Source of the DNA: Eledone cirrhosa
Lineage: Eukaryota
DNA: 64,000 bases
Assembly: GCA_964016885.1 (NCBI GenBank)
Contig: OZ024742.1
Coordinates: 91,512,001 to 91,576,000, forward strand
Direction of reading: 5' to 3'
The notes under the pieces were generated by a model. It saw nothing but the letters and a program-made list of their open reading frames with translations. It had not been told where the DNA came from and did not search any database. The stretch's first letter is position 1. The number at the start of each line of letters is the position of its first letter. Shown here in pieces: positions 13,012 to 64,000 of this stretch. The position numbers and the translations under genes are program-made.

Positions 13012-15735
13012 TTGTTATACTTGGGGAGGGTCATATTTGTGTAATATTGCCAGAATTAATAACAGAACACACTCACTGTTTAGTTGGTTTTTGCTTTTCG
13101 CTTCTGTGTCTTTTATATCGGCAATCTAATTTATTCGCTCCTCAATGTTGCCATTGACTGACCGACGGTCAAAAATAATGCAGATACAATATAGACACAA
13201 ACACATATATATAGTGTATCATAAATCTTTCGTTGCACATCTGCAACATCGTCGGTGGTGCTATTGTTTCCTCCCGTTACATTGTATGTCTACGCCATTT
13301 TTATTTAGTCTGTCTATATATTTATTTATTTATTTGCTTGTTTGTTTATTTATTTTATTTTGTCTTCTTTGCGTTTGCGTGTGTGTATAGTGTTTTGTTT
13401 GATGTGTGTTCGTGATTGGGTGACTAATGTGTGTTTATATGTGTTTGTTGTTATTGTGCTTGTGTATGTATTTATTTATTTATTTATCTATTTATTTGTT
13501 TATTTATACTTCTCTTAGGTCAGTATTGTTTGTTTGGGTGTTGTTATTCCATTCATTCTTTCTGTTTAGTCTTGGCCTTCTAAGTTCTATTTCACTGGCC
13601 TCTCTGATTTGCCTATCTGCTGGGTCATTTCTATGTTTAGATATTATTATAATTTCTATGTTGTCTATGTTACCGTCGTGTCGTTGTCTGGCATGTTCGT
13701 ATAGTACTGACCCGTTTTTTCGTCCTTTTAGTTCCCCCCAGTGTTGGTCTATCCTTTCATCTATGCTACGAGCTGTCTCACCTATGTATGTTGTTGTCAT
13801 GTTTCTGCAAGTACCCTCTGTACATCTTATGATATAGACTACGTTTCTAGTTTTACAGTTTATCCGGGGTTTACCTTACATATGACACATTTCCTATTAG
13901 TACAGTGAGTTTTCTTAAAAGGGTAGGTTTTGCTGATCAGGGATTTTATGGTGGTTCCTGGCTTTTCTACCACCTTAATCTTTAAGTGGGTCTTTCTCAG
14001 GGCCTTTCTACACTGGTTAGCTAATTTCCCTCCAGGGGTAGCGTCCACAAACATGACACTCTGGTATCTCTGGTTGTCGTACCATGAGGTGGCTTTCCCT
14101 ATCTTATGTCTAGCCCTATCTAAGCTATTCCATGATTTGCTCCTGTATAATGGGCAAATTCCTTTCATGTCCAGTTCTATGAGGGTCTTATACTTCTCCA
14201 TGGCTCCTTCGTATACTCTGATTCTGTCTCTTTGGTTGTAGCCAGAGAACTGCATGCGGTTGATGAAGTGTTGGATGTGTCTTTCCATTTCTGTTGGGTC
14301 GCACATGCGGGACACATTCTTCATCACTCGTACCAAATCTGCGATCAGAATATTAAACTTAGCACTACTGGACATTGCTGAGTTTTTGAGTATCAGGTAT
14401 TTGGAGGCCATGGGTTTAGCATAGTGTGAGTGGAGAATTTGGGCTCTCTCGTCTATAGTGTTAATCCAGAGTTCCGTGTCTAATACAGGTAGTCTATTGT
14501 TAGGGTGTTTGGAAGGGAAGTCGATAGTTACAGTTATACTCTGGTGTATGGAATTAGCTATCTGCTGGATGCCTTCCATTGTGCTACGTTCTAAATCAAA
14601 CTTGTTAGTGCTCTCTAGTGGGGATGTTCTTATAACTATATTGATATCGTCTACATAACGAGAGTACATGATGAGGTCTATGGAGCTCTCATTAAGGAGA
14701 TCTTTAAGTCTCCTTTCCCACCATACCATGAAAAGGTTGGCAACCAGCTATGCTGACACCAATGGCTGCTCCCTCATTTGGGGTGTAGATCTTCTCGTTG
14801 AACTTAAATATGTGGTAGGGTAGTTTTGATACTAGCCCCTATTGCATGTGCGACCATTTTTCTTACCTGATTATTGTTTTGGGGGGGGTCCGTATAGCTT
14901 TGGTCCACCCAATCCACCTTCCCATGGGAGTCTTTTTTGCCATTGAGGTTATGGTGGGGGTCTACCTCTTATGGGTCTACTGGGGCAGAAACGTCTAAGG
15001 TCATGGCTGTCTAGGTAGTCAGTGTCGTAGGTAAGTCTAAGTAGGAGGCCCAGTTCGTCTGTGTCGACGTCGCAGAACTCCACCTCACTCTCAATGATCA
15101 TCTCCACACATTATTTCACAGCAAAATTAATGTTAATGGATGGGTACAGTGACACCACATCCATGCTGCCTATTATGCAGTTAGATAGATTCCTGTTTTT
15201 GTTGCACTCACTGATTCTCCTGAGGAGGTCCTCTGTACTGTTACATACATCTGGGGACATCTTGATTATGGGGCCTATAACCATTGAGAGGAAGTAGGAG
15301 ATCCTGTAGTTGCTAGCTATATTAGCTCCGCATACGGGTCTTGTTGGTGATCCTGTTGTCGGGTCGTCGACTGTCTTGTGGTCTTTGCGGAGCCCATACA
15401 AGGGTGGTATGCCATTGTTAGACGCCTGGAAGTTGTTGGCAGTGCGTCTGCTTGGCTTTAGGATGTCAGTCCACATCATCATGTGAGCGTTGAGGATTTT
15501 CTCTCTCCCATCATGTGTTTGTTGTGCAATTTCGCTCGTGTTGGTGATGTGGGGTTGCATATCCTTGATGTAGTTCGGCATGCTATCTATTGACATCCTA
15601 CCAGACTTATCCGTGGGTAGACATACTACCTCACCATCCCTTGTGCGCTGCTTGAGGCTAACCAAGCCTTCTACAGGTTTCCTCCCAAGTTGTTGGGCCT
15701 CTGGTCTGCTCTGTCTCTTAGTATACCGGTCTCTT
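13012..15735 (-). mobile_element. 5'-truncated Penelope-like retroelement (RT + Cys-rich linker + GIY-YIG), frameshifted, with a non-coding 3'/pLTR region
   Basis: ORF pieces 15111-15665 (PTDKSG, LYGLRKDHK, RPV, SMDVVSLYPSI), 13860-14729 (RYVDD, PVLD, CxxxxCxxC) and 13504-13860 (VVY..YIGET..R..QH..REA..PRLN). Confidence 0.92.
13210..13265 (-). ncRNA. PLE hammerhead motif with mutated core (CCGACGA)
   Basis: CCGACGA-T-GTTGCA-gatg-TGCAAC-GAAA-GATTTA; the copies at 45.9 and 47.3 kb have an intact CTGACGA. Confidence 0.6.
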
Positions 15736-15769
15736 AGTATACCGGTCTACTATTTGATAAATTATTCAA

Positions 15770-20020: not shown

Positions 20021-20535
20021 ATACTTTGGGAGGGTCATGTTGCCAATAAGAAACACACGCACCAGTAGCTTTCACTTCAATTTAATATAATAAATTTATA
20101 AATTTAGGAATTTATAAATTTCCGGTTGGTTGGTTGGTTCCACAACCAGATGATTGTTCATATATTGTCAAAGTTCTTTCATCACACATTCTGTGACCTC
20201 TTCAGTCCTACGCCATCTTGTTTTTGTGTGTCACACAAAAACAAGATGGCGTAGGACAGAACAAAGGAGAGGCACAAAAACAAAGAAAAGAATCCCCAGT
20301 CACTGAAGAGGTCACAGAATGTGTGACGAAAGAACTTTAACAATATACAAACAATCATCTGGTTGTGGAACCAACCTACCAACAGGAAATTTATAAATTT
20401 ATTATAATAAATTGAAGTGAAAGCAACTGGTGCGTGTGTTTCTTATTGGCAACATGACCCTCCCAAAGTATAACAATATCGGTTTCAACACACACGTTTT
20501 CAGAAGAAGAATCTTTCTAAACAAATTCAGAAACG

Positions 20536-20538
<3 letters not shown>
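20013..20538. mobile_element. Palindromic family B element with a hammerhead motif in each arm
   Basis: Arm 20013-20206 is inverted relative to 20302-20480; (TA)n on both sides. Confidence 0.88.
20298..20342 (+). ncRNA. Minimal type I hammerhead motif
   Basis: GTCA-CTGAAGA-G-GTCACA-gaatg-TGTGAC-GAAA-GAAC-TT-T(A/G)AC; mirrored copy at ~20167-20206 on the minus strand. Confidence 0.7.
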
Positions 20539-20593
<55 letters not shown>

Positions 20594-23500
20594 CGGGTAA
20601 AATTCCCGAGATCCATGGACGAGTTCTCTCCAGCGGTCTCTGTCCCTCATTATCGCTGCCATATCCTGCATCTCCAACAGACCAGTGTCTGTCCTTAGGG
20701 CATCAACATATGTTAACCTTGGTCTTCCTCTTCTAGTGTGTCCATGTAGGGGCTCCCAAAGGAGCACTGAGTGCAATGTCAACTCTGGATGTCGGTGAGC
20801 ATGTCCAGCCAAGCTCAGTCTCCTCTGTGTCACTTTTGAGCTGACTTTTGGGATGCTCCCATACAGCTCTGAGTTTTTCATCCTCAGTGTATACTGATTA
20901 ATGTTCAGAGCCATCCTCAGCATTCTCGTGTAGCACCCATCCACCATCTGAGTGAGTCTCTTGGTCAGTGTCCAAGTCTCAGACCCACACAGCAGCACAG
21001 ACTCCACTACAGCAATGAAGAGGCGGATTTTCAGGTCTCTACGAAGGTCCGACTTCCACACCGATCTCAAGCTGTGACACGCCGCCCAGGCCCTGCTCTT
21101 CCTCTCAACCACATCATCTTCCGTATTCCCAATCTTTGCTCCCAAATACAGGAAGTCCTCAACCAATTCCAGCGGCTTCCCGCCTACATTAGTGATCCCC
21201 TCTGGCTTCTCAACATTCTCTACCAGATATTTTGTTTTAGTCTCATTCATTCTCAGCCCCACACTCATCGACACAGTTTCAACCTCCCGCATCAAATCCT
21301 CTGCCTCCTTCACTGTATTTGTCACCAAAACTATGTCGTCGGCAAATTCAGCATCCGATACCTTTTTCGCCCCAACTCTCCTGCTCTGAGCCGGTGCTAC
21401 AGTAAAGCCAGAGTCCTGGTGTTTTTCCAGTGCAAGGCACATACAATAGTCCACTACGATGATAAAAAGGTAGGGAGCCAATGTATCTCCCTGGAGCACT
21501 CCAGCCAGTATCTCAAAGAACTCTGTCATCCCATCAGGTGTAATGACTTGGGCTTTGGTGTTGGTGTAGAGCAGTGATATCAGGTCCACTATCCTCTTGG
21601 GGATTCCATAAGCCTGTAAGATCTTCATCAGGCAGTAACGGTCCACAGAATCAAAGGCCTTCCTAAAGTCAATGAAAACCATGACCGCAGGAAGGCACTT
21701 TGCTCTAGCTCCCTCTAATATCCTCCTCAGCATCAGGATGTGACTGGTGGTTGATCTACCCTCTCTGAAGCCGTTCTGGTTGTCCCTGAGCTTCTCCATC
21801 TCAGGCTGGATCCTGTTAAGAATCATCCTGTTGAGGGTCTTTGCCACAAGTGACGTCAGTGAGATCCCCCGGTAGTTGTTGGTGTTAGAGAGATCTCCCT
21901 TCTTTGGCACTGGGACGATGTTACTGATCCTCCACTGATTCGGGGCAACTCCTTTCTCCAGTGCCCCGTTACAGAACCCCAGGATGATATCATCAAAATC
22001 ACACCTCTTCATCACCTCTGATGCCACTCCATCTTCTCCATGAGCCTTGCCCTCCTTGATCTTCTTCTTGGCTCTCTGAAGCTCCTCTCTGGTGAAGGGC
22101 TCTGTCTCAACATCCAGTTCCTCAAACAGCCGCCTGATCTCCCCAGTGCTCTGGGCTGTGGAGGGTGTCTCTCCTAGTAGGGTCCTAAAATGGTCTAGCC
22201 ATTTCCTCTTCCTATCCTCGGGCCCCGTTCCCTGGATCTGACTCGAACACCTTTTCTTCCTCCCTGTGATCTCGTTGATGATCATCCAGCTCTCCTTACA
22301 TCCAAATCTGTCAACCGCTCTCTCCACACTTCTGATCTTCTCTATCAGTGCCTCCTCTCTGACCTCAGTGTAAGCGGTACAGAGCTCTTCCCTCATTACC
22401 TCCACAGTCTCCATCCTCTCCTCCGTAGGATCAGCATAGAATTGGTCCCTGGCAGCTTTCAGGTGTTCTCTGGCTGCACACACTTTTGGGTTTGCAGAGC
22501 TGACGTGCTTCCCTTTGTTCTTTTTCCTCGGCACCAGGGTTTCACTTGCTTTCGCCACTGCATTGGTGAAATGCCCGTACCTCCTCGTCACACTCTCCTC
22601 AGTCCATCCAATCTCTCTCTCCTCTGACTCTCCACACAGAGCACTAAACCTGTTTCTCACTTCCACTGTGAACCTCTCCTGTAGCTTATCATCTTCCTTG
22701 AAAGCTCCCCAGTCATAGATTGTTCTCCGGGGCTGAGCCTTGCTCTTTCTTAAGCTCACACGGACCTCACTCATAACAAGCCGGTGGTCACTACCCAGTG
22801 TACTGAAATAGCTGTATGGTTCCGTGTTCAGAACACTATTCCGCCACTTTTTCCTCACCAGAATGAAATCAATCTGGGACTTGGACAGGTGCATATCTGA
22901 GATGTAGGTCCACATCTTCCCCAGATTCTTCCTAAACCTTAGGTTGGTCGCCATCAAGTTCGCCTCCAGCAGGGTGTCTCTCAGTAGTCTTCCATTTCGG
23001 TTGGTGTTGTTATGGAAGTACCAGCAAGGATCTTCACTGCCCTCCTTACTCAGATGTGCATTGAAGTCCCCCAAAACAAGCAGGATATTGTGTGCCTGAG
23101 TGGTGTTGACAGCTCTACACACCTCCTCATGGAACTCCTCGGCATTCACATTACTGTCCCCCTCGGTTGGACTATAGGCTGAGATGACTGTCAGTCTTGG
23201 GTTTCCATTGAAGGTCACCCTCAACACTCGCGGGGAGATAGGCATTATTTCCCTCACCAACAGATTGGTTTTTGCACTGAACACAAAACCCACTCCTCCT
23301 ACTGCAGCATTTGTTGTGTTCTTCACTGCCGATGTAGTGATGAGCTGGCTCTTCCTCCCGATCATCACACTCCTCACGGGCTCATCGTGTAGAATCCTGT
23401 GTTCTTGGATAGCAAGTATCTGTATACCACTCTCCTCGAACAGATGTCCCAACTCCCCTCTCTTCTCCAGCGTTCGAATAGTCCTCACATTCAAAGTGCC

Positions 23501-23680
23501 CATTTTGATGGCTCTTCTGCAGGACAAAACTGCATTCTCTATATTTGTCTCAGAGACAGCTGATCCATCATCCACTGGCCCTCTCTGTGGCTCTAAGCCA
23601 GCAGAGTCATAACGACCAGGCTGCTCCTTGACAGTGTAATTAGGGGCTCTAACCCTAGTGCTGTTAGATCGACTCTCCAT
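20402..23680 (-). CDS. LINE ORF: APE endonuclease + reverse transcriptase. Native end is ..EFYPP at ~20591; here it reads through (TA)n to 20402
   Basis: GTLNVRT, AIQEHR, SAYSPT, LGDFNA, QIDFILV, SDHRLV (APE); YRGISL, FIDFRKAFDSV, GVLQGDTLAPYLF, FADD, FLYLG, ETWTL, RRGRP (RT); likely ATG at 23680. Confidence 0.93.
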
Positions 23681-23888
23681 ATTTCTTTTCAATGGCTGAC
23701 AATACCTTACCGGCGCCACTCGAATAAGGTAGTTATTTAACCCATAAATGGAGCCCTAACAGGTACTACCACCCCGGGCCAGGGCAGACCTGGGAGTCAT
23801 GACAACTAAGGGGTAACTCCACATTCCCCACATCTCCTGAACTCCCGAACTGGAGCCTTGCCACTGGATGTAGTTTAATGTCATACCC

Positions 23889-29127: not shown

Positions 29128-29131
<4 letters not shown>

Positions 29132-29570
29132 AAAAAGAATGACCCCGACGGCAGAGCTCAAGCCGTTTCGACGGTTATTTCTGGACTAAATTAGAATTTA
29201 GCCAGGCTAAAAATTCTAATTTAGTCCAGAAATAGCCATCGAAATGGCTTGAGCTCTGCCGTCGGGGTCATACTTTTTCCTATTTCCTACTCTACTACCC
29301 TAAGTATTGAGTACTCTGGTGCGTTATGGTCCATCTGGTTCCTTACCACTGAATTTAAATTCATAGAAATTTGGGACTTGACTTCTTCTTCCTCACTTTT
29401 CCTTGCTTCTCCATTTTTGTTTGTTTACACTCGTGTCCCATTTATTTACGTGTCCCAACGACTTTTTTTAGCCGCTGATCGCACCAACCGGAGGTATATG
29501 GTCTTTAAAGCGATGAAATACCAATGATGGTTGGAAGATCACTGATGAAGGACTAACTTTATTCATATAT
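29128..29570 (+). mobile_element. Chimeric element: family F palindrome (29128-29282) plus body fused to a family A segment (~29362-29570)
   Basis: The first part matches 27296-27480 and the second matches 48420-48573; bounded by (TA)n. Confidence 0.8.
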
Positions 29571-43645: not shown

Positions 43646-44218
43646 GTAGTAAGGGCTGCAATAACAACTGGTAACATCATTCATATTTGCCCTTCGTCAA
43701 GTATATAATTACAGAAGATAATTTGTATTTTTGGAGTGCCACTTTCAGAACAAATTAAAACTAAAACAAAAATAAACAAACTTAAAATACAATGAAAATA
43801 TGAATACTTAAAAGAGGAAAGAAAGATTCATCCGCTTCCTTCAGCTGAGGAATGAAAGACAGTAGGAAAGTAATACATGGGAAATTATATAAGAGAAAGA
43901 GAAGTAATAGTTACCTCACATTAATGAATGTCTGTGGTTTGGTAAACTGACATTGTAGGTGTGATATAGTTTAATAAGACAGAATCAAGGCTGTTGTGAG
44001 AGAAAACCACTTTGAGTGTAAAAACTTATTTTTACATGTAGGAATTGTATTTTCAATTCTATTTTGACTTGAGATAAGGAGTAAGCAATATGCAGGTAAC
44101 AGGAACTATTCTGTAGTATTTTGTGAACCCATGATTTCTACTGGAGCCTGGGGGAGTCCATCTAACTCCAAGAGAGAAAGTGAGTTAAAGGGGGAGAGAA
44201 GGGGCGTAATATATATAT

Positions 44219-44580
44219 ATGAAAAAGTGAGTCCTCATCAGTGACCCTCCAACCGTCCTCGGCACCCCATCGCCCCAAGGGCCATATGCCTCAGGCTGGT
44301 GCGAACAACGGCTAAAAAAAGTCGTTGGGACACGTAAATAAAGGGGGACATTAGAGTAACAACAAAGGGTTATAGCAACGGATAACCCTTTGTTGTTACT
44401 CTAATGTCCCCCTTTATTTACGTGTCCCAACGACTTTTTTTAGCCGTTGTTTGCACCAACCTGAGGCATATGGCCCTTGGGGCGATGGGGTGCCGAGGAC
44501 GGTTGGAGGGTCACTGATGAGGACTCACTTTTTCATATGTGTCCCATTTGCAACGCCGCAGCTCCATTATCACCATATTT
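44219..44580. mobile_element. Family A fold-back palindrome (~155 bp arms, 8 bp loop) with clustered A>G/T>C changes
   Basis: 44219-44373 versus 44382-44538 differ by about 2 mismatches; (TA)n on both flanks. Confidence 0.92.
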
Positions 44581-44603
44581 ACATATATATATATATATAT
44601 ATA

Positions 44604-44873
44604 TGTAGATAAATCTACCAAAATATACGGTAGTGTCAAATCCGTATGAAGAACTCAATGTAATCCAAATATCATGAAAAGAGATGATGTATTCAACATT
44701 TTTTCGATGAAAAAGATATATATGTGTAGGTATGTATATTCCCTCTGATAGTTTGTAAAAATTTTACATAGATCTATATGATATACATACCAACACACAC
44801 ATATATATCCTAGAAACGATCGTAAAATGATGAATTTTTTAATATAAGGAACTGTTTCTTTGTTTTTATTCAT

Positions 44874-45582: not shown

Positions 45583-45654
<72 letters not shown>

Positions 45655-45658
<4 letters not shown>

Positions 45659-47572
45659 TACTTGGGGAGGGTCATATTTGTGTAATATTGCCAGAATTAA
45701 TAACAGAACACACTCACTGTTTGGTTGGTTTTCGCTTCTCGCTTCTGTGTCTTTTATATCGGTAATCTAATATACTCGGGCCTCAATGTTGCCATTGACT
45801 GACCGGCGGTCAAAAATAATACAGATACAATATAGACACAAACACATATCATAAATCTTTCGTTGCACATCTGCAACATCGTCAGTGGTGCTATATTTTC
45901 CTCCTGTTGTATTGTATGTCTACGCCATTTTTATTCAGTCTGTCTATATATTTATTTATTTATTTGCTTGTTTGTTTATTTTATTTTGTCTTCTTTGCGC
46001 ATGCGTTTGCGTGTGTGTATAGTGTTTTGTTTGCTGCGTGATGGGTGACTAGTGTGTGTTTATGTGCTTGTTGTTATTGTGCTTGTGTATGTATTTATTT
46101 ATTTATTTATTTTATTTTATTTACTTATTTATACTTCTCTTAGGTCAGTGTTGTTTGTTTGGGTGTTGTTGTTATTCCATTCATTCTTTCTGTTTAGCCT
46201 TGGTCTTCTAATTTCTATTTCACTGGCCTCTCTGATTTGCCTATCTGCTGGGTCATTTCTATGTTTAGATATTATTATAATTTCTATGTTGTCTATGTTA
46301 CCGTCATGTTGTTGTCTAGCATGTTCGTATAGTACTGACCCGTTTTTTCATCCTTTTAGTTCTCCCCAGTGTTGGTCTATCCTTTCACCTATGCTACGAG
46401 CTGTCTCACCTATGTATGTTGTTGTCATGTTTCTGCAAGTACACTCTGTACATCTTATGCTATAGACTACGTTTCTAGTTTTACAGTTTATCTGGGGGTT
46501 CACCTTACATATGATACATTTCCTATTGGTACAGTGGGTTTTCTTAAAAGGGTAGGTTTTGCTGATCAGGGATTTTATGGTGGTTCCTGGCTTTTCTACC
46601 ACCTTTATTTTTAAGTGGGTCTTTCTCAGGGCCTTTCTACACTGGTTAGCTAATTTCCCTCCAGGGGTAGCGTCCACAAACATGACACTCTGGTATCTCT
46701 GGTTGTCGTACCATGAGGTGGCTTTCCCTATCTTATGTCTAGCCCTATCTAAGCTATTCCATGATTTGCTCCTGTATAATGGGCAAATTCCTTTCATGCC
46801 CAGTTCTATGAGGGTCTTATACTTCTCCCTGGCTCCTCCGTATACTCTGATTCTGTCTCTTTGGTTGTAGCCAGAGAACTGCATGCGGTTGATGAAGTGT
46901 TGGATGTGTCTTTCCATTTCTGTTGGGTCGCACATGCGGGAAATAGACATTAGAAGACCAAGGCTAAACAGAAAGAATGAATGGAATAACAACAACACCC
47001 AAACAAACAACACTGACCTAAGAGAAGTATAAATAAGTAAATAAAATAAAATAAGTAAATAAATAAATAAATAAATACATACACAAGCACAATAACAACA
47101 AGCACATAAACACACACTAGTCACCCATCACACAGCAAACAAAACACTATACACACACGCAAACGCATGCGCAAAGAAGACAAAATAAAATAAACAAACA
47201 AGCAAATAAATAAATAAATATATAGACAGACTGAATAAAAATGGCAAAGACATACAATACAACAGGAGGAAAATATAGCACCACTGACGATGTTGCAGAT
47301 GTGCAACGAAAGATTTATGATAAACTATATATATGTGTTTGTGTCTATATTGTATCTGTATTATTTTTGACCGCCGGTCAGTCAATGGCAACATTGAGGA
47401 CCGAGTATATTAGATTACCGATATAAAAGACACAGAAGCGAGAAGCGAAAACCAACCAAACAGTGAGTGTGTTCTGTTATTAATTCTGGCAATATTACAC
47501 AAATATGACCCTCCCCAAGTATAACAATATTTGTTTCGACACACGATTTCATATAAAAAAACCTCGCCAAAC
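45655..47572. mobile_element. Penelope-like element: truncated minus-strand copy (45655-46941) fused to an inverted copy of its own 3' end (46940-47572)
   Basis: Highly similar to 13012-14311; GIY-YIG NVVYSIRC..YIGET with a CGA>TGA stop at 46348; both outer ends lie in (TA)n. Confidence 0.95.
47275..47330 (+). ncRNA. PLE type I hammerhead motif
   Basis: CTGACGA-T-GTTGCA-gatg-TGCAAC-GAAA-GATT-TA; mirrored at ~45847-45895 on the minus strand. Confidence 0.7.
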
Positions 47573-47589
47573 TATATATATATATATAT

Positions 47590-48573
47590 GAACAAATGGC
47601 GTGCTGCGTGGTTGCAAATGGGTTACATATTGGTATTTCATTGGTATTTCATCGCTTTAAAGACCATATACCTCTGGTTGGTGTGAGCAACGGCTGAAGA
47701 AAGTCGTTGGGACATGTAAATAGGGGGAACGAGCGAGACAGTAAACAAACAAAGATGGTAATGCAACGAAAAGTGAGGAAGAAGGAGTCAAGTCCCTGAA
47801 ATTGATGAATATAAGTTCTGTGAAATCGTAGACGAGAGAATAAAGACCACCCAACAGGTCAAACCGGAGGAAGTGACGGAGAGGGAGTAGCAGAGAGTGA
47901 ATGAGTGAAAGTGTGAGGAAGAGGCTAACAGAGAGAATGTGACTGGCAGACGGGGTAAAAAGAAAGTGAGAGATACAGAGAAAGGGGAAGCAGTAAGAAA
48001 AAAACAGACGGGTCACAGCGGAGGAAAATATATAAATATATGAAAAAATGGCGTGCTGCGTGGTTGCAAATGGGTTACATATGAATAAAATTAGTCCTTC
48101 ATCAGTGATCTTCCAGTATTGCAACCACGCAGCACGCCATTTTTTCAGATATTTATATATTTTTCTCCGCTGTGACCAGTCTGTTTCTTTCTTACTGCTT
48201 CCCCTTTCTCTGCATCTCTCAGTTTCTTTTTACCCCCTCTGCCAGTCACACTCTCTCTGTTAGCCTCTTCCTCACACTTTCACTCACTCACTCTCTGCTA
48301 CTCCCTCTCCATCACTCCCTCCCGTTTGACCTGCGCGAAATTCTTTCCTCGCTCACATTTCGACTAGGTTGGATGGTCTTTATTCTCTCGTCTACGATTT
48401 CACAGAACACATGTTCATCGATTTCAGGGACTTGACTCCTTCTTCCTCACTTTTCGTTGCATTACCATCTCTGTTTGTTTACTGTCTCGCTCGTTCCCCC
48501 TATTTACGGGCCCCAACGACTTTCTTTAGCCGTTGCTCGCACCAACCAGAGGTATATGGTCTTTAAAGCGATG
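47590..48573. mobile_element. Family A composite: monomer + partial tandem unit + inverted monomer
   Basis: Head-to-tail junction at ~48040; inversion at ~48118. Confidence 0.88.
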
Positions 48574-48645
<72 letters not shown>

Positions 48646-57191: not shown

Positions 57192-60100
57192 TCACTTTCT
57201 TCTTGTTTTATTGGATGCAGCAGTTTGATCCTGCTCGTGTATTTTCTTGTGTGCAACAAGGTTACTTCGTGTTCGAAACGTTACAGAGCATTTTTGACAT
57301 TTTAAGGTTTCGACGACTGTGTGCGCACGTTCATGTGCCATTAAATTTTTACGTTGAGAAAAAGCTCGTCCACATGTGGCACAAACGTGAGGCTTTACCG
57401 CAGTATGCGTGTAAGAATGCCGCAACAAATGAGTACTAGATACGAAGCCCTTCTCACATACATCACACTTGAATGGTCGTTCGCCTGTATGCCCACGAGT
57501 ATGGTAGAGTAACTGGGAAGGTTTCTTGAATTGTTTTGAACAGTATTCACACCGAAGTGGTGGTCGCTTTTTCCTTTTACGAGATGTTATTTTAGATTTG
57601 CCACGATTAACATTCTTGGTTGATTTACTACCTTTACTACCTCTCTGTGATATGATATGTTCCACATGTGATACGATATCGCCAACATTTTTTGTGATAT
57701 TCTTATAAGAATCAAGATTTCTAGAAACTACTGTGGTCTCAGCGGTTGATTCTAACTTCGAAATGGCACAATCATCATGAATGCAATCTTCGCCAAGATT
57801 TAAATGTTTTTTGTAAAGCTCTTCAGATTTAGATGTCTTCACGGTCGAACGCGTTTTTCGGTGTCTTTTCTTATAATTCGATCCAGTTAAATGCATTTTC
57901 ATTTGAAGGTCTTTTCTTGAACTTGTTTCCTCGGCATCATTATTCATTGAGAAGCGAACATTTCTATTTATTCGACGCTTTTGTTTCGGAGATACATTAG
58001 TATTTTTAAGCATTCCATTTAGTGATGTCTTCGTGTCAGAATTGAGAGTATCCTCTGTATATTCAGTAGACTGTAATGACTGAAAGTTGCTTACATTATT
58101 CTGCAGCCTACAGCAGTCCACCACTAAAGTTTTTCGACTGTCACCAGTGTTTAATCTATTAGTTTTCATGTGCTTCCGTATCACTGGAAGTTTGGAAGAC
58201 GTAGAGTCCCATATCTTTAATAAGTTAGCGTTAGATTTAGAATGCTGAGGAAAAGTGGCATCTCTGTAATTGATGTTAGAAGTTCCTGAGCCGTTTTCCG
58301 ATTCTATTTCATTTTCCTGAACTGTAGTCGTCTGAAACAGTATATCGAATATATTGTTGTTCCCGTCAATTATGTTAAAGTTTTCTTCTTCCTTTAAAAG
58401 TTTTGTTGTCTTGAGAAGAATCGGATCCTCTTCAAAATTAATAGACTTGATTTTCAGTATCTCTCCCCCTTTCGAAGACTTCCGTTTCTTGTTTACCACT
58501 GTTGTTAATTCAGATGACAAACGACAATGTTTTGCACCGTTGTCAGTTATCAATTGTTCTTGGTATACACTTTCGTTTTTACCATCTTGAAACCGGCTGT
58601 CATCAGTTGTAAGTTCATTAAATGCTATCACCTTCTTCAGCTTTGAAATATCTAGTACTTCCGTCGTGTTGATTAGTTTTAATACATTGCCTTCTTTAGT
58701 ATTTTCTTGCTGGAATGTCAAGTTGTAATTCCTTCTGGAATGTGGCTGAGATTTAGATTTCTTAAAAGAATTGACATTCGACGTGTGTTTTCTTTCATTA
58801 GATTTATCTAAGGAGCCCATGATGTTGGTGTAATTCTCTGAATGGTCATTGCTTTCAGCAGTAATCATCTGAACTTGACCAAATAGATCGGGTTTATCAG
58901 CCTTGTTTCGTGCATGTCGGTTATATTTTTCTCTTAGTCTCTTATTATCGTTAATATCGGGAGACGTTTCTTTTGGACTTGACAGTAAAACTGATCTCAC
59001 CATCCAATCGAAACAACTATTGTTATCATTATCATTATTTAGATTGATATTTATTTTTGAAATATAATTCTTAAATGACGTTTCCATTTTCAGAACTTTT
59101 TCTTTTGAAAAACAGCATTTGGAGGATTTATTTTTAAAGTCAGATTCAGGTAGCATGGAGCGAGATCTTAACGAATTAGAATATACTTTAGTGATTATAG
59201 AACCACTCGCCGAAGAACGATTTCTTCCCCGGAAGTATTTATTTTCTTTTAATTTGCTGATTTTTCTCCTTGCTTTAGAGCTGTCTTCTGAATCAAGTAT
59301 TTCGGACATCTCAATATCTCTATCGATAAACATGAGATTTACATCTTCATCCGTGCAGGGCTCTGTCGGAAAGGTACGTTTCAATGTTTTACGTTCTTCA
59401 GGAGTTTCAGCGTTAATTGTAAGTTTTGTACTGTTTCCAGATTTGTTTGTACGATGGATATCTTTAACTTGATTATCGTATATTTTCTTTGTAGTTACAG
59501 ACATCTTTGATTGAATATAAGCTTTCTGATTTTCCTCCTCATCTTTCTTCTGTTGATTCGCCCTTCTTAAAATAATAGCTCTTTTGGGTTTTATAATTTT
59601 CGATTGGTTACGCTTTTTAAAAGAAGAAATGCATTTTTCAACAGGGGGTTCTGACTTGGTGAAAATTCTGTTATGGTCCAGGTCGACACTACATACACCA
59701 TAATAACACCCTCTTTTTTCACTTACAAGAGGCAATCTCGACGACTTTCGGCATGAGCTTCTGGTATTTGATTTCACAGGTGAAACCTTTGCTATATCAT
59801 ACCCACTCTCCTCCGTTCCGTCTGGTGAGGTGTGTTCTAGTGAGACATGAGTTACTCTTTTTCCTCCATTACTGGTAAATAGAGAATTTGAATGATTTTC
59901 CGCAACATTTGAATCACTTTTATCTCCTCCCAGAAGATATTTTGAGTTCTCCGAAGCGTTTGTATGGACACTTACAAAATTGAAGAAAATATCTTCATCA
60001 CTTTCTGTCCCCAAACCCATGATATAATCCCCTGTGCTTTCTTCTACGAAGCCATCATCACTAGTAGAGGACAACGTCGCCAGATTATCTGCATTTTCTA

Positions 60101-63100
60101 TATTGCATTTTCTCTCCTCTTTCTTACTTCGTGGTTTCCTTACAACATTAGTTCCTTTGATATTATATTTTCTTGGTCTACCAACGCTTTTTTTCTTTGG
60201 TTTTCCCGCTAAACTGGTATTACAACTCATATCATATACCTTTTTATCGTGAACTATTTTCCTTTGCTGGCTTCGCCCTGCACGTCCGGATTTATTAGGC
60301 GTCTTAGTGAAATGCTCTTCTTCCATCATTGCCATTTTTCCCACGGTTTCAAAATATGCTGCTAGCTTGGCTTTCTTCGCTTCTATATCCACTTGGTTTG
60401 TGCTTTTACTCGCCATTTGTTTCATATCAGCGCCGCCGCAAATATTTCTACTGATAACAAGTTTTATGTTTCTATATTCATCAGCACGACTAGTGAGGAT
60501 GATTTTCACCAATTCAGTGTAATCTTTTGTAAATTCATTTCCATCTAGAGGGTCTTCACCGGTGGGTCGATCTCTTTGGATGCTTAACGCGTCTATATCT
60601 GTCAAAACAGTTTTCTCCGTACTATTTTCGTTGGATACATTTTTTGTTTCTGTCGCATTTTCTGAAATATCTGTTGCTGTTGCTGCTGATTGATGCTCAA
60701 CATCTTTATTTCCGGACGATGATGCGTCTGTTTTTATTTCAGATGTCTTCAATAGAATTTCTTTAATACTCCGATATCTTTCAGCGCTGCAGTTCTGCAG
60801 ACCCTGAACAATGTTTGCATAACTTATGAGAAAGTTGTCAAAATCAGATTCAGTTTTTGATAATTGGGATTTAATATCTTCGAAACAAAGTCTGGCATTT
60901 TCCATTATAGTTGGATTGACATTTCCAGGTGTAACTTTTTTCTCTCGAAGTGGAGGAGGAGGAGGGAGTTTAAACAAAGGTGGGGGTGGGGGAGGATAAA
61001 TAGGTAAAGGTATACATGGTCGAATCATGGCAATTGGAGACGAACTTTTCTTTTTGGAAATATTACTTCTGCTTTGCTTATCAAATATTACTGTTTCTCT
61101 TCTAAAAATTTGAACAGAGCGTGGGTGACGCTCTTCCACCAATTTAGTTACAGTTTTAGATGTATGTTCTGGTTTTGTCTGCTCTGAAACACAAGTTACA
61201 TTAGATAATTCAGCAGATGAGAGAACCAGTTTCAAAGAATCTTCAGTTACATTACATGAATCATTAAGACTGTGTTTGCCATCTTCATGTGTAACTGTCG
61301 GTTTATTGATAGAAACGCCATTTCTACTCGACGGCCACATATTAGGCGAGCCACTATAATTTGATAGACATTTTCTAATTGAAGATTTTTGCTGAGATTT
61401 ATCTTTTGTCGATTTAAACAGTAGATAGGGACATTTCCACGATGCATTATTTGTTTTCTGACGTTTATCTAGCTTCTTTTTTAATTCTAAATATGATTTC
61501 ATCTGTCGTTCCTCTTGGCTCAGATTTGAACATTCATCACACCAACCATTTGCATCTTCACTATTTTCTCCTAACTCTTTTTTATTGGTTAATTGCGACG
61601 GAGCCTCTGAAACATAAATATTTGTTACGTTTTTATTATCATCATCTAATTGTGCGTTACAATCTGAACTACTCGGAACATCACTATGTATTCGAGAACC
61701 TTCATCCCCGTTCATTTCACTCATATGTTTTTGGGAATCATTTGAATGATTCAGAATAGTTTCAATAACCGTTTGGCTACAAGCTGCCTGAACACTTTTT
61801 TCATTTTCATCTCTCTTTGGATTAATTTTAATTTCAGTCTCTGGTGTGGTTACTACTTCATTTAGCGAATCACACACTTGTTGAATACTTTCATCTTTTC
61901 CATCCATGTTTGCATTCTTTTTAATTCTACTTTTAGACGTCTGTTTTGCTTGCAATGCTGTGTTCATTGATGTTTCTCCTTTGGTTTCTTCGTCCAATCG
62001 TGGCGTTTTGCGTGGTCGTCCACGTGGTCTTCGAAAAAGTTGTTTTACATCTTTGGTTTTTCCAGTACTTGAGCTTACAGTTGTATTCGCTAAACCAATA
62101 TTCACCAACTGTTTTTTACTGGAACACTTACCGACATCATAAAGATTTCTGGAATTAGAATCCCAGTTATCAATGAGCAAACTCATCAATGGCCTACCAT
62201 CATTATTTGATTCTGAACCATTGTCATATTTGAAACTATTTTCTTTTTGAAGTCCAGGTTTCTTTACATATTTACCTTTGTTGATTTCGAAATCACTGAT
62301 CGACTCAGCAAGCTGATAAGCTGTTTTTGATGTGCATCGGTCCGAAAACCTTTTTGTAACTTCTGGATCATAAAATGAAATTTTCTTTTGTTCTGACACC
62401 AACGCTGACGAGCCATTTATAGACCCAGCACTCTTGCTTCTTCTTTTGGGGGTATGTGGATTACTATCGATCCGTGAAATCATGTCCGTTGCGTATAAGG
62501 TTTGTCCCGGAGAACATTGGTAGGTTGCCCTTTCACTTGGATATCTTTGGCTCATAATTCCACTTTGTGTTGTAGGATATACATGGGTGCAAACTGGATG
62601 TTTTAGTGATGAACAGATGCCCTCACTTTGATTTTTGGAATACTTCATTTGGTTATCATATTGAAACGCTGACTTATAACCATCGTTTGTAGACACAGAT
62701 GTAGCATAAAAGGAGGTGTTGGAAGGGGTTGGATTAGGGGACATATTGATATGCTGGTTGTTCGCAGAATGGTGGGTCATGAAACGATCTGGCGTTTGGG
62801 TAGTATTTCCAAAATTCGAGACAAGCTTTTCGATATAATCATTCTCTTTTTGAACATTATTCGCAGAAGTTATAGACGCAGCATCCTCAAAGCTTTCATC
62901 AAAGGCCGAGTTGTAATCGTGGTAGTAGTCAAGATCATTTGTCAGGAGACTGGCCAAGAAAACAGGATCATAATCTGAAAGCAAGAATGATTCATCAGCC
63001 ATCATGTCCGCCGATTGATCTCCCTTAGACCCATCAGGTGTTAAAAGGTGCTTATCGTCAACTAAACCGGGCTCAAGAACGTCATTATCTGAAAAAATAA

Positions 63101-64000
63101 AATTGGAATCATTAAGATCTTTCAAAGGATTTTCTGCTCCACACCGCTTATATTTTGATATTTGCTGAGCGATTGAAGGGTCGTTTATGTTTTGAAAATC
63201 TTTTCCAGTTTGTTCACGAGGAACTGATGGATATTCTGACAGAAAGCAATTACCTTGAGACGCTTGTGAACTGACTGAAGGTAGACTGCCTGTAGTAAAA
63301 GCGCTCAAATTCGGACGCTGAATATTATCATTTGTTATTGATTTTGTAGTCATTACCATATTATTTTGCTCATTATGTTGAAATCCTATATTTTGGTTTA
63401 AAAGAGGCTGAGTGATGTTGTACAACTGCTTTTGCAGAAACTGGCCGTTCTCGGAAACATTTCCATTATCTTTTGGTTCAGATGTCGGCGCCGATAAACT
63501 GGAGCGGATTTCTTGTTGCTGGACTAGGTGACATAGTTTTGCTGAGCCTCCCATATCTTTGTCGACATTCAGCAGGCCACAGGAATCATTGCTAGTGGGT
63601 ATTGGAAACCACGGTATAATGCTTTTAAAATTATCTTCATGAATATTTTCTGTGTTATAATGGGATTGTGTAAGCGATTTCTCTGAATTATTGGCAGGTT
63701 TGAAAGATCTATGCATATTATTTGCCGTAGAACCAACTTGTATATAATTATTCGGGTTCAGGCTAGATTGATTCTTTCTGTTGATTTTCTTTTCTTTTAA
63801 AGAACTTTTCGAAAAGCGAGACGTTTTATTACAGACATCATTTTCAGCATGGTTTCTGACTTGATTTTGTTGTAGATATATATTGGAATTCGATCTCTCA
63901 TTAGTACTGTTGTGTTGTGATGTGGGCTCTAATCTTGGTTGGAAACTGCTTTCGGTCAAATATTGTTTTGGTGAGATTCCATTGTCTGTTCTTACATTCG
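57192..64000 (-). CDS. Large AT-hook / C2H2 zinc-finger protein (4 C-terminal fingers); terminal coding exon, 5'-incomplete in this window
   Basis: Open frame of >2260 codons that stays open past the TTG at 63959 to the window edge; RRPRGRPRK (~62010-62035), VGRPRK (~60170-60186), a poly-Pro stretch, and four CxxC-x12-HxxxH fingers with a TGERPF linker (~57240-57555). Confidence 0.93.
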   Translation of the reverse strand, partial: NVRTDNGISPKQYLTESSFQPRLEPTSQHNSTNERSNSNIYLQQNQVRNHAENDVCNKTSRFSKSSLKEKKINRKNQSSLNPNNYIQVGSTANNMHRSFKPANNSEKSLTQSHYNTENIHEDNFKSIIPWFPIPTSNDSCGLLNVDKDMGGSAKLCHLVQQQEIRSSLSAPTSEPKDNGNVSENGQFLQKQLYNITQPLLNQNIGFQHNEQNNMVMTTKSITNDNIQRPNLSAFTTGSLPSVSSQASQGNCFLSEYPSVPREQTGKDFQNINDPSIAQQISKYKRCGAENPLKDLNDSNFIFSDNDVLEPGLVDDKHLLTPDGSKGDQSADMMADESFLLSDYDPVFLASLLTNDLDYYHDYNSAFDESFEDAASITSANNVQKENDYIEKLVSNFGNTTQTPDRFMTHHSANNQHINMSPNPTPSNTSFYATSVSTNDGYKSAFQYDNQMKYSKNQSEGICSSLKHPVCTHVYPTTQSGIMSQRYPSERATYQCSPGQTLYATDMISRIDSNPHTPKRRSKSAGSINGSSALVSEQKKISFYDPEVTKRFSDRCTSKTAYQLAESISDFEINKGKYVKKPGLQKENSFKYDNGSESNNDGRPLMSLLIDNWDSNSRNLYDVGKCSSKKQLVNIGLANTTVSSSTGKTKDVKQLFRRPRGRPRKTPRLDEETKGETSMNTALQAKQTSKSRIKKNANMDGKDESIQQVCDSLNEVVTTPETEIKINPKRDENEKSVQAACSQTVIETILNHSNDSQKHMSEMNGDEGSRIHSDVPSSSDCNAQLDDDNKNVTNIYVSEAPSQLTNKKELGENSEDANGWCDECSNLSQEERQMKSYLELKKKLDKRQKTNNASWKCPYLLFKSTKDKSQQKSSIRKCLSNYSGSPNMWPSSRNGVSINKPTVTHEDGKHSLNDSCNVTEDSLKLVLSSAELSNVTCVSEQTKPEHTSKTVTKLVEERHPRSVQIFRRETVIFDKQSRSNISKKKSSSPIAMIRPCIPLPIYPPPPPPLFKLPPPPPLREKKVTPGNVNPTIMENARLCFEDIKSQLSKTESDFDNFLISYANIVQGLQNCSAERYRSIKEILLKTSEIKTDASSSGNKDVEHQSAATATDISENATETKNVSNENSTEKTVLTDIDALSIQRDRPTGEDPLDGNEFTKDYTELVKIILTSRADEYRNIKLVISRNICGGADMKQMASKSTNQVDIEAKKAKLAAYFETVGKMAMMEEEHFTKTPNKSGRAGRSQQRKIVHDKKVYDMSCNTSLAGKPKKKSVGRPRKYNIKGTNVVRKPRSKKEERKCNIENADNLATLSSTSDDGFVEESTGDYIMGLGTESDEDIFFNFVSVHTNASENSKYLLGGDKSDSNVAENHSNSLFTSNGGKRVTHVSLEHTSPDGTEESGYDIAKVSPVKSNTRSSCRKSSRLPLVSEKRGCYYGVCSVDLDHNRIFTKSEPPVEKCISSFKKRNQSKIIKPKRAIILRRANQQKKDEEENQKAYIQSKMSVTTKKIYDNQVKDIHRTNKSGNSTKLTINAETPEERKTLKRTFPTEPCTDEDVNLMFIDRDIEMSEILDSEDSSKARRKISKLKENKYFRGRNRSSASGSIITKVYSNSLRSRSMLPESDFKNKSSKCCFSKEKVLKMETSFKNYISKININLNNDNDNNSCFDWMVRSVLLSSPKETSPDINDNKRLREKYNRHARNKADKPDLFGQVQMITAESNDHSENYTNIMGSLDKSNERKHTSNVNSFKKSKSQPHSRRNYNLTFQQENTKEGNVLKLINTTEVLDISKLKKVIAFNELTTDDSRFQDGKNESVYQEQLITDNGAKHCRLSSELTTVVNKKRKSSKGGEILKIKSINFEEDPILLKTTKLLKEEENFNIIDGNNNIFDILFQTTTVQENEIESENGSGTSNINYRDATFPQHSKSNANLLKIWDSTSSKLPVIRKHMKTNRLNTGDSRKTLVVDCCRLQNNVSNFQSLQSTEYTEDTLNSDTKTSLNGMLKNTNVSPKQKRRINRNVRFSMNNDAEETSSRKDLQMKMHLTGSNYKKRHRKTRSTVKTSKSEELYKKHLNLGEDCIHDDCAISKLESTAETTVVSRNLDSYKNITKNVGDIVSHVEHIISQRGSKGSKSTKNVNRGKSKITSRKRKKRPPLRCEYCSKQFKKPSQLLYHTRGHTGERPFKCDVCEKGFVSSTHLLRHSYTHTAVKPHVCATCGRAFSQRKNLMAHERAHTVVETLKCQKCSVTFRTRSNLVAHKKIHEQDQTAASNKTRRK

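Follow-up and report, generated by a model that had tools for sequence, protein, structure and literature searches.

Penelope-like insertions are described as carrying 5´ truncations, partial tandems, an inverted 5´-truncated copy at the 5´ end and a one-sided tail, with TA repeats as targets (PMC8557442). The purified Penelope-type enzyme is reported to cleave and extend both target strands and to initiate inside the RNA (PMC11167929), so that two arms arising from one RNA in a single event are conceivable. In lizard and Xenopus tropicalis, Penelope RNAs are reported to rank with the repeats that ADAR edits most heavily (PMC5625713, PMC10636886), and a 2016 review describes a role of ADAR in retroelement subfamily evolution and mutation as undetermined though logical (PMC4982230). 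Our literature search, which covered part of the subscription papers, found no report of genomic ADAR footprints in endogenous retroelements. Here, we describe copies of a Penelope-like element that bear strand-specific A>G clusters in assembled DNA, starting from a palindrome in a window of 64,000 nucleotides on contig C3 of a 3.0 Gb genome.

The palindrome noticed in the original prediction is real, with its left boundary at 44217 instead of 44219. The near-perfect inverted repeat spans 44217–44538, and its arms differ at two positions (44296/44459 and 44303/44452) around a center of 8 unpaired nt (44374–44381). The left arm (44217–44381, minus strand) is an inverted 5´-truncated copy of a non-coding Penelope-like element, the 3´ end of which enters a TA repeat. 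The right arm (44382–44585, plus strand) is a direct 5´-truncated copy that continues past 44538 with a tail of roughly 50 nt. In the sequence, TA repeats occupy both insertion junctions, at 44209–44222 on the left and 44583–44605 on the right. Comparison of the arms places an additional A>G in the left arm only (44296, minus strand) and a C>T at a CpG in the right arm only (44452, plus strand), the latter likely an ordinary post-insertion mutation. Comparison with other copies reveals one more A>G in the right-arm tail (44541, plus strand), outside the extent of the left arm. Elsewhere in the window, the family has another head-to-head insertion at 47573–48574, which is older and rearranged and lacks an A>G cluster. 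A second hairpin repeat family of roughly 150 nt lies in TA repeats beside palindrome-family copies (29131–29283, and also at loci L093 and L130).

The element consists of units of 630–778 nt, which are often in tandem. With offsets counted from the motif start at window position 44469, 101 of 125 local copies have a nearby 3´ end, and 96 of these 101 stop at +70 to +75 or +121 to +127, where they enter TA repeats. The 95 5´ ends of the local copies are scattered from -1 to -638. Inverted 5´-truncated copies adjoin direct ones in 24 head-to-head pairs of the local sample. A constant 3´ end, 5´ truncation to varying lengths, partial tandem units, an inverted copy at the 5´ end, a tail on one side and TA microsatellites as targets are all Penelope-like features, and we regard the element family and its architecture as established. 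From the truncation polarity, that is, fixed 3´ ends and scattered 5´ ends in the genomic copies, we infer that the strand bearing A>G is the transcript strand. The strand polarity is indirect, because the local loci yielded no autonomous partner with an ORF: among their 174 open frames, judged by eye, none encodes a reverse transcriptase plus GIY-YIG joined to the unit.

Other open or broken frames are present in the window. Broken frames at 13507–15746 (minus strand) contain RT-like and GIY-YIG-like motifs by eye, with no Pfam match, and probably belong to another Penelope-like family, to which inverted arms at 45650–47536 are related. Locus L101 contains a piece related to this family with a canonical-looking hammerhead, again by eye. 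The window also contains a LINE whose open frame of 1,117 aa has an endonuclease and a reverse transcriptase domain (20405–23755, minus strand) and an uninterrupted 2,268-aa frame that ends in C2H2 zinc fingers (57195–63998, minus strand).

The original prediction compared positions 44245–44288 with the copy at 29.5 kb (29420–29568, plus strand) and counted 15 substitutions, comprising 10 T>C, 4 A>G and 1 A>C and mirrored in the other arm. The counts are exact; judged by its sequence, that copy is the wrong reference, a member of a different subfamily from the palindrome. Searching with the right arm recovered 40 further copies (94–95% identity), and the nearest copies (among the 28 fetched, L003–L030) differ from the palindrome almost only at two triplets, so nine of the substitutions are ordinary subfamily markers. 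These nine (44467, 44474, 44476, 44492, 44495, 44497, 44500, 44508 and 44510 on the plus strand, mirrored at 44288–44245) comprise all four A>G, the A>C and four T>C, and all are common to a natural copy of the nearest subfamily, L004. The subfamily-specific pattern has 485 matches genome-wide, many of them in solo copies, and the idea that all 15 changes record editing is therefore lost for these nine. At G000:C2:54546566-54565570 and beyond, this subfamily forms a tandem array, with at least 26 units spaced about 730 nt apart.

Six of the 15 changes are private to the palindrome. The T>C changes at 44265–67 and 44274–76 in the left arm correspond to A>G at 44488–90 and 44479–81 in the other arm, and all six are A>G on one element strand in both arms. 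In the right arm the cluster (44479–44490, plus strand) converts two AAA triplets to GGG; its left-arm mirror (44265–44276, minus strand) reads CCC at each triplet on the plus strand. The mixed picture of A>G and T>C arose because the inverted arm was read on the plus strand against another subfamily. The exact six-G form has two exact matches genome-wide, which are the two arms of this palindrome locus only. With a background of 13 A>G per 4,207 A, the probability of at least six A>G among 30 adenosines is about 5e-10.

In the predicted secondary structure, six of the nine markers make up three pairs that change from U-A to C-G; these lie in two helices, in which 98% of cells are paired across 19 distinct rows, and two more markers form a weaker predicted pair; since the few subfamilies are related, this covariation represents only a handful of events. 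In all subfamilies, the region 44465–44520 (plus strand) contains hammerhead-like pieces in the order helix, UA, helix, GAAA, CUGAUGA, with two crossing, covarying helices. CUGAUGA (44514–44520, plus strand), near the 3´ end of the element and without an Rfam match, is presumably the first half of a hammerhead core. The region is possibly a dimeric or pseudoknotted ribozyme variant. The edits strike the GAAA of this region, and the right-arm triplet 44488–90 destroys the GAAA conserved in the family. Rfam returned no match at the gathering score in 6 loci, and its 108 weak matches include no hammerhead. Assignment to the non-LTR retrozymes is not supported: no type I hammerhead was found in the units of these loci, and the core-like pieces depart from the standard arrangement and show no stem II.

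To score clustered A>G genome-wide, the unedited 24-nt motif and edited versions of it were searched in the assembly. The unedited motif has 5,969 exact matches, and five patterns that each require two to four A>G have 4, 7, 7, 7 and 11 matches. Pooled, the latter are 16 copies at 12 loci on 8 contigs, with several subfamily backgrounds; the search patterns spanned offsets -3 to +45, and the sample consists of copies edited within that span. A T>C control pattern and an A>C/T transversion control pattern, both of the same design as the second of the five A>G patterns, have 0 matches genome-wide. For scoring, the column majority of the nearest unedited copies served as the reference and the searched sites of each locus were removed. 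L144, a local duplicate with a G-run expansion, was excluded, leaving 15 of the 16 copies. At L144:1060-1080 an eight-G run stands at an edited site, in a duplicate of the L145 arm, and apparently reflects slippage after editing.

Of the 457 A in the 15 copies, 71 are changed to G, and none of the 556 T is changed to C. The 44 changes other than A>G are 17 C>T (of 412 C), 12 G>A (of 345 G) and 15 transversions. Scored in the same way, 116 unselected copies have 11 of 4,235 A changed to G, with no copy having more than one such change, and 33 of 5,072 T changed to C; within the motif the A>G rate of these unselected copies is low because most were fetched by the intact motif. Every new locus from the two-site searches has at least three further A>G. 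The five loci from an independent downstream pattern are weaker, with 22 A>G versus 29 other changes, the latter mostly from two old copies. Some loci are perhaps not independent events, since five have G at +23, +27 and +39 in common, two of these being searched positions. The A>G changes keep to the element strand in copies of either chromosomal orientation (4 forward and 3 reverse in one pattern, 7 and 4 in another). They are concentrated at -5 to +90, where 63 of 302 A are changed; the figures fall to 7 of 112 for -60 to -6 and to 1 of 39 past +90, and farther upstream 2 of 184 A are changed in the first seven loci. The strand-specific A>G at 12 loci and its confinement to the 3´ 100–150 nt of the element are established. 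The original prediction assumed that both strands were edited, which is at odds with the complete lack of T>C on the element strand.

The sequence context of the changes resembles that of ADAR. With the searched sites removed, 45 of 146 adenosines with a 5´ A or U are edited, versus 18 of 156 with a 5´ G or C (P=6e-5); counting each site once, the rates are 0.34 at 18 A/U sites and 0.11 at 15 G/C sites (P=5e-4). This 5´ A/U bias is established. Depletion of 5´ G alone is significant at -5 to +90 (11 of 102 edited versus 52 of 200, P=0.002) and not significant over the wider interval of -60 to +112 (P=0.18). Recurrent hot spots lie at -1, +10, +20, +21, +27 and +39 and include an isolated A after U (-1, edited at 7 of 12 loci), while the A after G at +16 and +41 are cold (0 at each). 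Invertebrate ADAR editing is reported to favor a downstream A; here, a 3´ A ranks highest with all sites included, and the preference is gone once the searched sites are removed. Depletion of upstream G is described as an ADAR mark across animals (PMC5625713), and coleoid editing sites are described as preferring an upstream A and occurring in adjacent runs (PMC8891338); that the host is a coleoid is an assumption of the original prediction. The adenosine-deaminase domain PF02137 is found at 4 places in the genome, and one deaminase exon is closest to human ADAR2 (E=3e-102), which establishes the presence of an ADAR2-like gene. The ADAR2-like deaminase domain lies in two long coding blocks at L170:1246-2067 (G000:C6, 13.64 Mb), and three further deaminase loci are on C1 and C25.

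We consider it likely that element RNA edited by ADAR was reverse-transcribed into the germline and that retrotransposition fixed the edits in DNA. In such a pathway, ADAR would deaminate adenosines on the element RNA, a Penelope-type reverse transcriptase supplied in trans would read inosine as G, and a single edited RNA, inserted once, would have given rise to both head-to-head arms of the palindrome; the insertion would have taken place in the germline or in the early embryo. We infer a germline origin because the assembly contains these copies and some of them are old and have since mutated further. Arm homogenization or a second cycle, invoked by the original prediction, is unnecessary, because head-to-head copies are a normal form of a Penelope-like insertion and both arms would come from one event.

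The double-stranded substrate that ADAR would use is not explained by local structure, which is not supported as a candidate. The local monomer fold is ordinary (z of -1.1 to +0.6 in 4 copies), edit counts do not track predicted pairing probability (rho -0.03), and no internal complement was found within the unit. Because the monomer fold fails to explain double-strandedness, we guess that an inverted or antisense copy paired with this region over a long stretch; inverted copies are common in the family. The original prediction proposed a test for enrichment of palindromes, and edited loci show no clear excess of them: they account for 3 of 12 edited loci and 9 of 67 comparison loci, counted by hand among the first 100 of the 5,969 unedited-motif matches (P=0.38), and 9 of the 12 edited loci have no adjacent inverted arm. 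At all three edited head-to-head loci (44296 in the window, L094 and L145/L146), the tail-less inverted arm has one extra A>G compared with the other arm; in these three cases, two reverse-transcription passes over one inosine-bearing RNA may be recorded. Sharing of rare variants between the arms of unedited palindromes was uninformative, because duplicate loci sat among the neighbors. Private variants common to both arms were seen by eye at L009 and L012.

Among the rival explanations, the most credible, itself unlikely, is error-prone reverse transcription, in which the element's enzyme inserts C across from A in the first part of cDNA synthesis, as might happen when dTTP is scarce, without any deaminase. 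It shares with RNA editing the prediction of sense-strand A>G and would also produce a preference for A runs and changes near the 3´ start of synthesis; the counts of 38 of 164 A at -5 to +45 and 25 of 138 at +46 to +90 fall on its side. However, the hot isolated A after U and the cold A after G do not fit this reading, and in the last 22 nt before the tail end only 1 of 39 A is changed. Nucleotide-pool bias favors G:T wobble errors (G>A and U>C), and the T>C expected from such errors is absent (0 of 556). A DNA-level process, either adenine deamination on one strand of an insertion intermediate or clustered mutation after insertion, is very unlikely. ADARs are cited as able to edit the DNA strand of RNA:DNA hybrids (in PMC12925331), yet deamination of the cDNA strand would leave T>C on the element strand, where none is found, and post-insertion mutation would be neither common to both arms nor tied to the orientation of the element.

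An artefact of sequencing, polishing or assembly deserves marginally less credence than that. Mismatch clusters can be artefacts (PMC2873906), and the genomic reads offer nothing decisive at the edited bases: in 4 of the 9 listed runs compared with 43700–44378, the X1 and X2 contigs match 43700–44238 unchanged, two reduced-representation runs barely touch the flank of the 44217 palindrome, and the best run matched only 0.15 of 26 sampled words. A low share of sampled words is expected, since the rare variants of a high-copy repeat are lost from assembled contigs. Three observations make an artefact unlikely: the changes keep to the strand of the element whichever way it lies in the chromosome, they occupy identical element positions across 8 contigs, and 9 of the 12 loci are not hairpins, having no adjacent inverted arm. 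GC-biased conversion between the arms, which the original prediction offered as its alternative, or simply a GC-rich subfamily, is the least credible reading and has next to no chance of accounting for the clusters. The subfamily reading is true for the nine markers. For the six private changes both versions are refuted: the six-G form is restricted to the palindrome locus, the transversion pattern has no match, T>C is lacking, most edited loci have no second arm, and conversion is unable to create alleles absent from both arms.

The core of the original prediction, that ADAR editing reached the DNA through reverse transcription, is supported by the 12 loci, the strand-specific A>G and the ADAR-like 5´ bias, and more firmly than by the palindrome alone, with nine of its 15 changes given up to a subfamily variant. 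More generally, it is likely that ADAR acts on retroelement RNA ahead of target-primed reverse transcription and in this way deposits heritable clusters of A>G at a measurable rate, affecting about 0.3% of the copies of this family. If this is true, edits made in RNA pass directly into inherited DNA through the retroelements of the animal itself, and the copies are a fossil record of germline RNA editing, an RNA-level counterpart of DNA editing by APOBEC. In animals that edit heavily, Penelope-like families at large should then reveal such footprints, and these would make germline ADAR activity, its sequence preference and the double-stranded part of Penelope-like RNA before insertion testable from assemblies alone. 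The genomic effect is small here, 16 copies versus about 6,000, with no sign that editing shaped the subfamilies. In an 86-copy tree (midpoint root, 18 columns skipped), the internal branches carry 11 A>G, 10 G>A, 18 T>C and 15 C>T, with no excess of A>G.

Compared with the Penelope-like elements and non-LTR retrozymes as they are described (PMC8557442; PMC11167929; bioRxiv 10.64898/2026.07.22.740005), the element has in common the 5´ truncation, partial tandems, inverted copy, tail, TA targets and non-coding tandem units. Unlike those described relatives, it combines units of 630–780 nt and a tail of about 50 nt, and neither a canonical type I hammerhead nor a linked ORF was found. The hyper-editing described in lizard and Xenopus tropicalis was seen at the RNA level only, whereas the changes here are in assembled DNA. 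ADAR hypermutation of avian retroviruses (PMC12925331) is similar in that A>G clusters in a terminal or inverted-repeat region were attributed to ADAR and seen after reverse transcription; those reported cases are virus isolates, whereas the present ones belong to a non-viral retroelement and recur in its endogenous copies throughout the genome of the host. The APOBEC DNA editing described for vertebrate LTR retrotransposons (PMC4866542; PMC2873906) likewise yields strand-biased, one-type mismatch clusters in rare copies relative to their subfamily, made in the transposition cycle and fixed on insertion. That system, as reported, involves G>A changes by a DNA cytidine deaminase in vertebrate LTR elements, with 19 invertebrate genomes as a negative control; in contrast, the clusters described here are A>G, were likely made on RNA and belong to a non-coding Penelope-like element.
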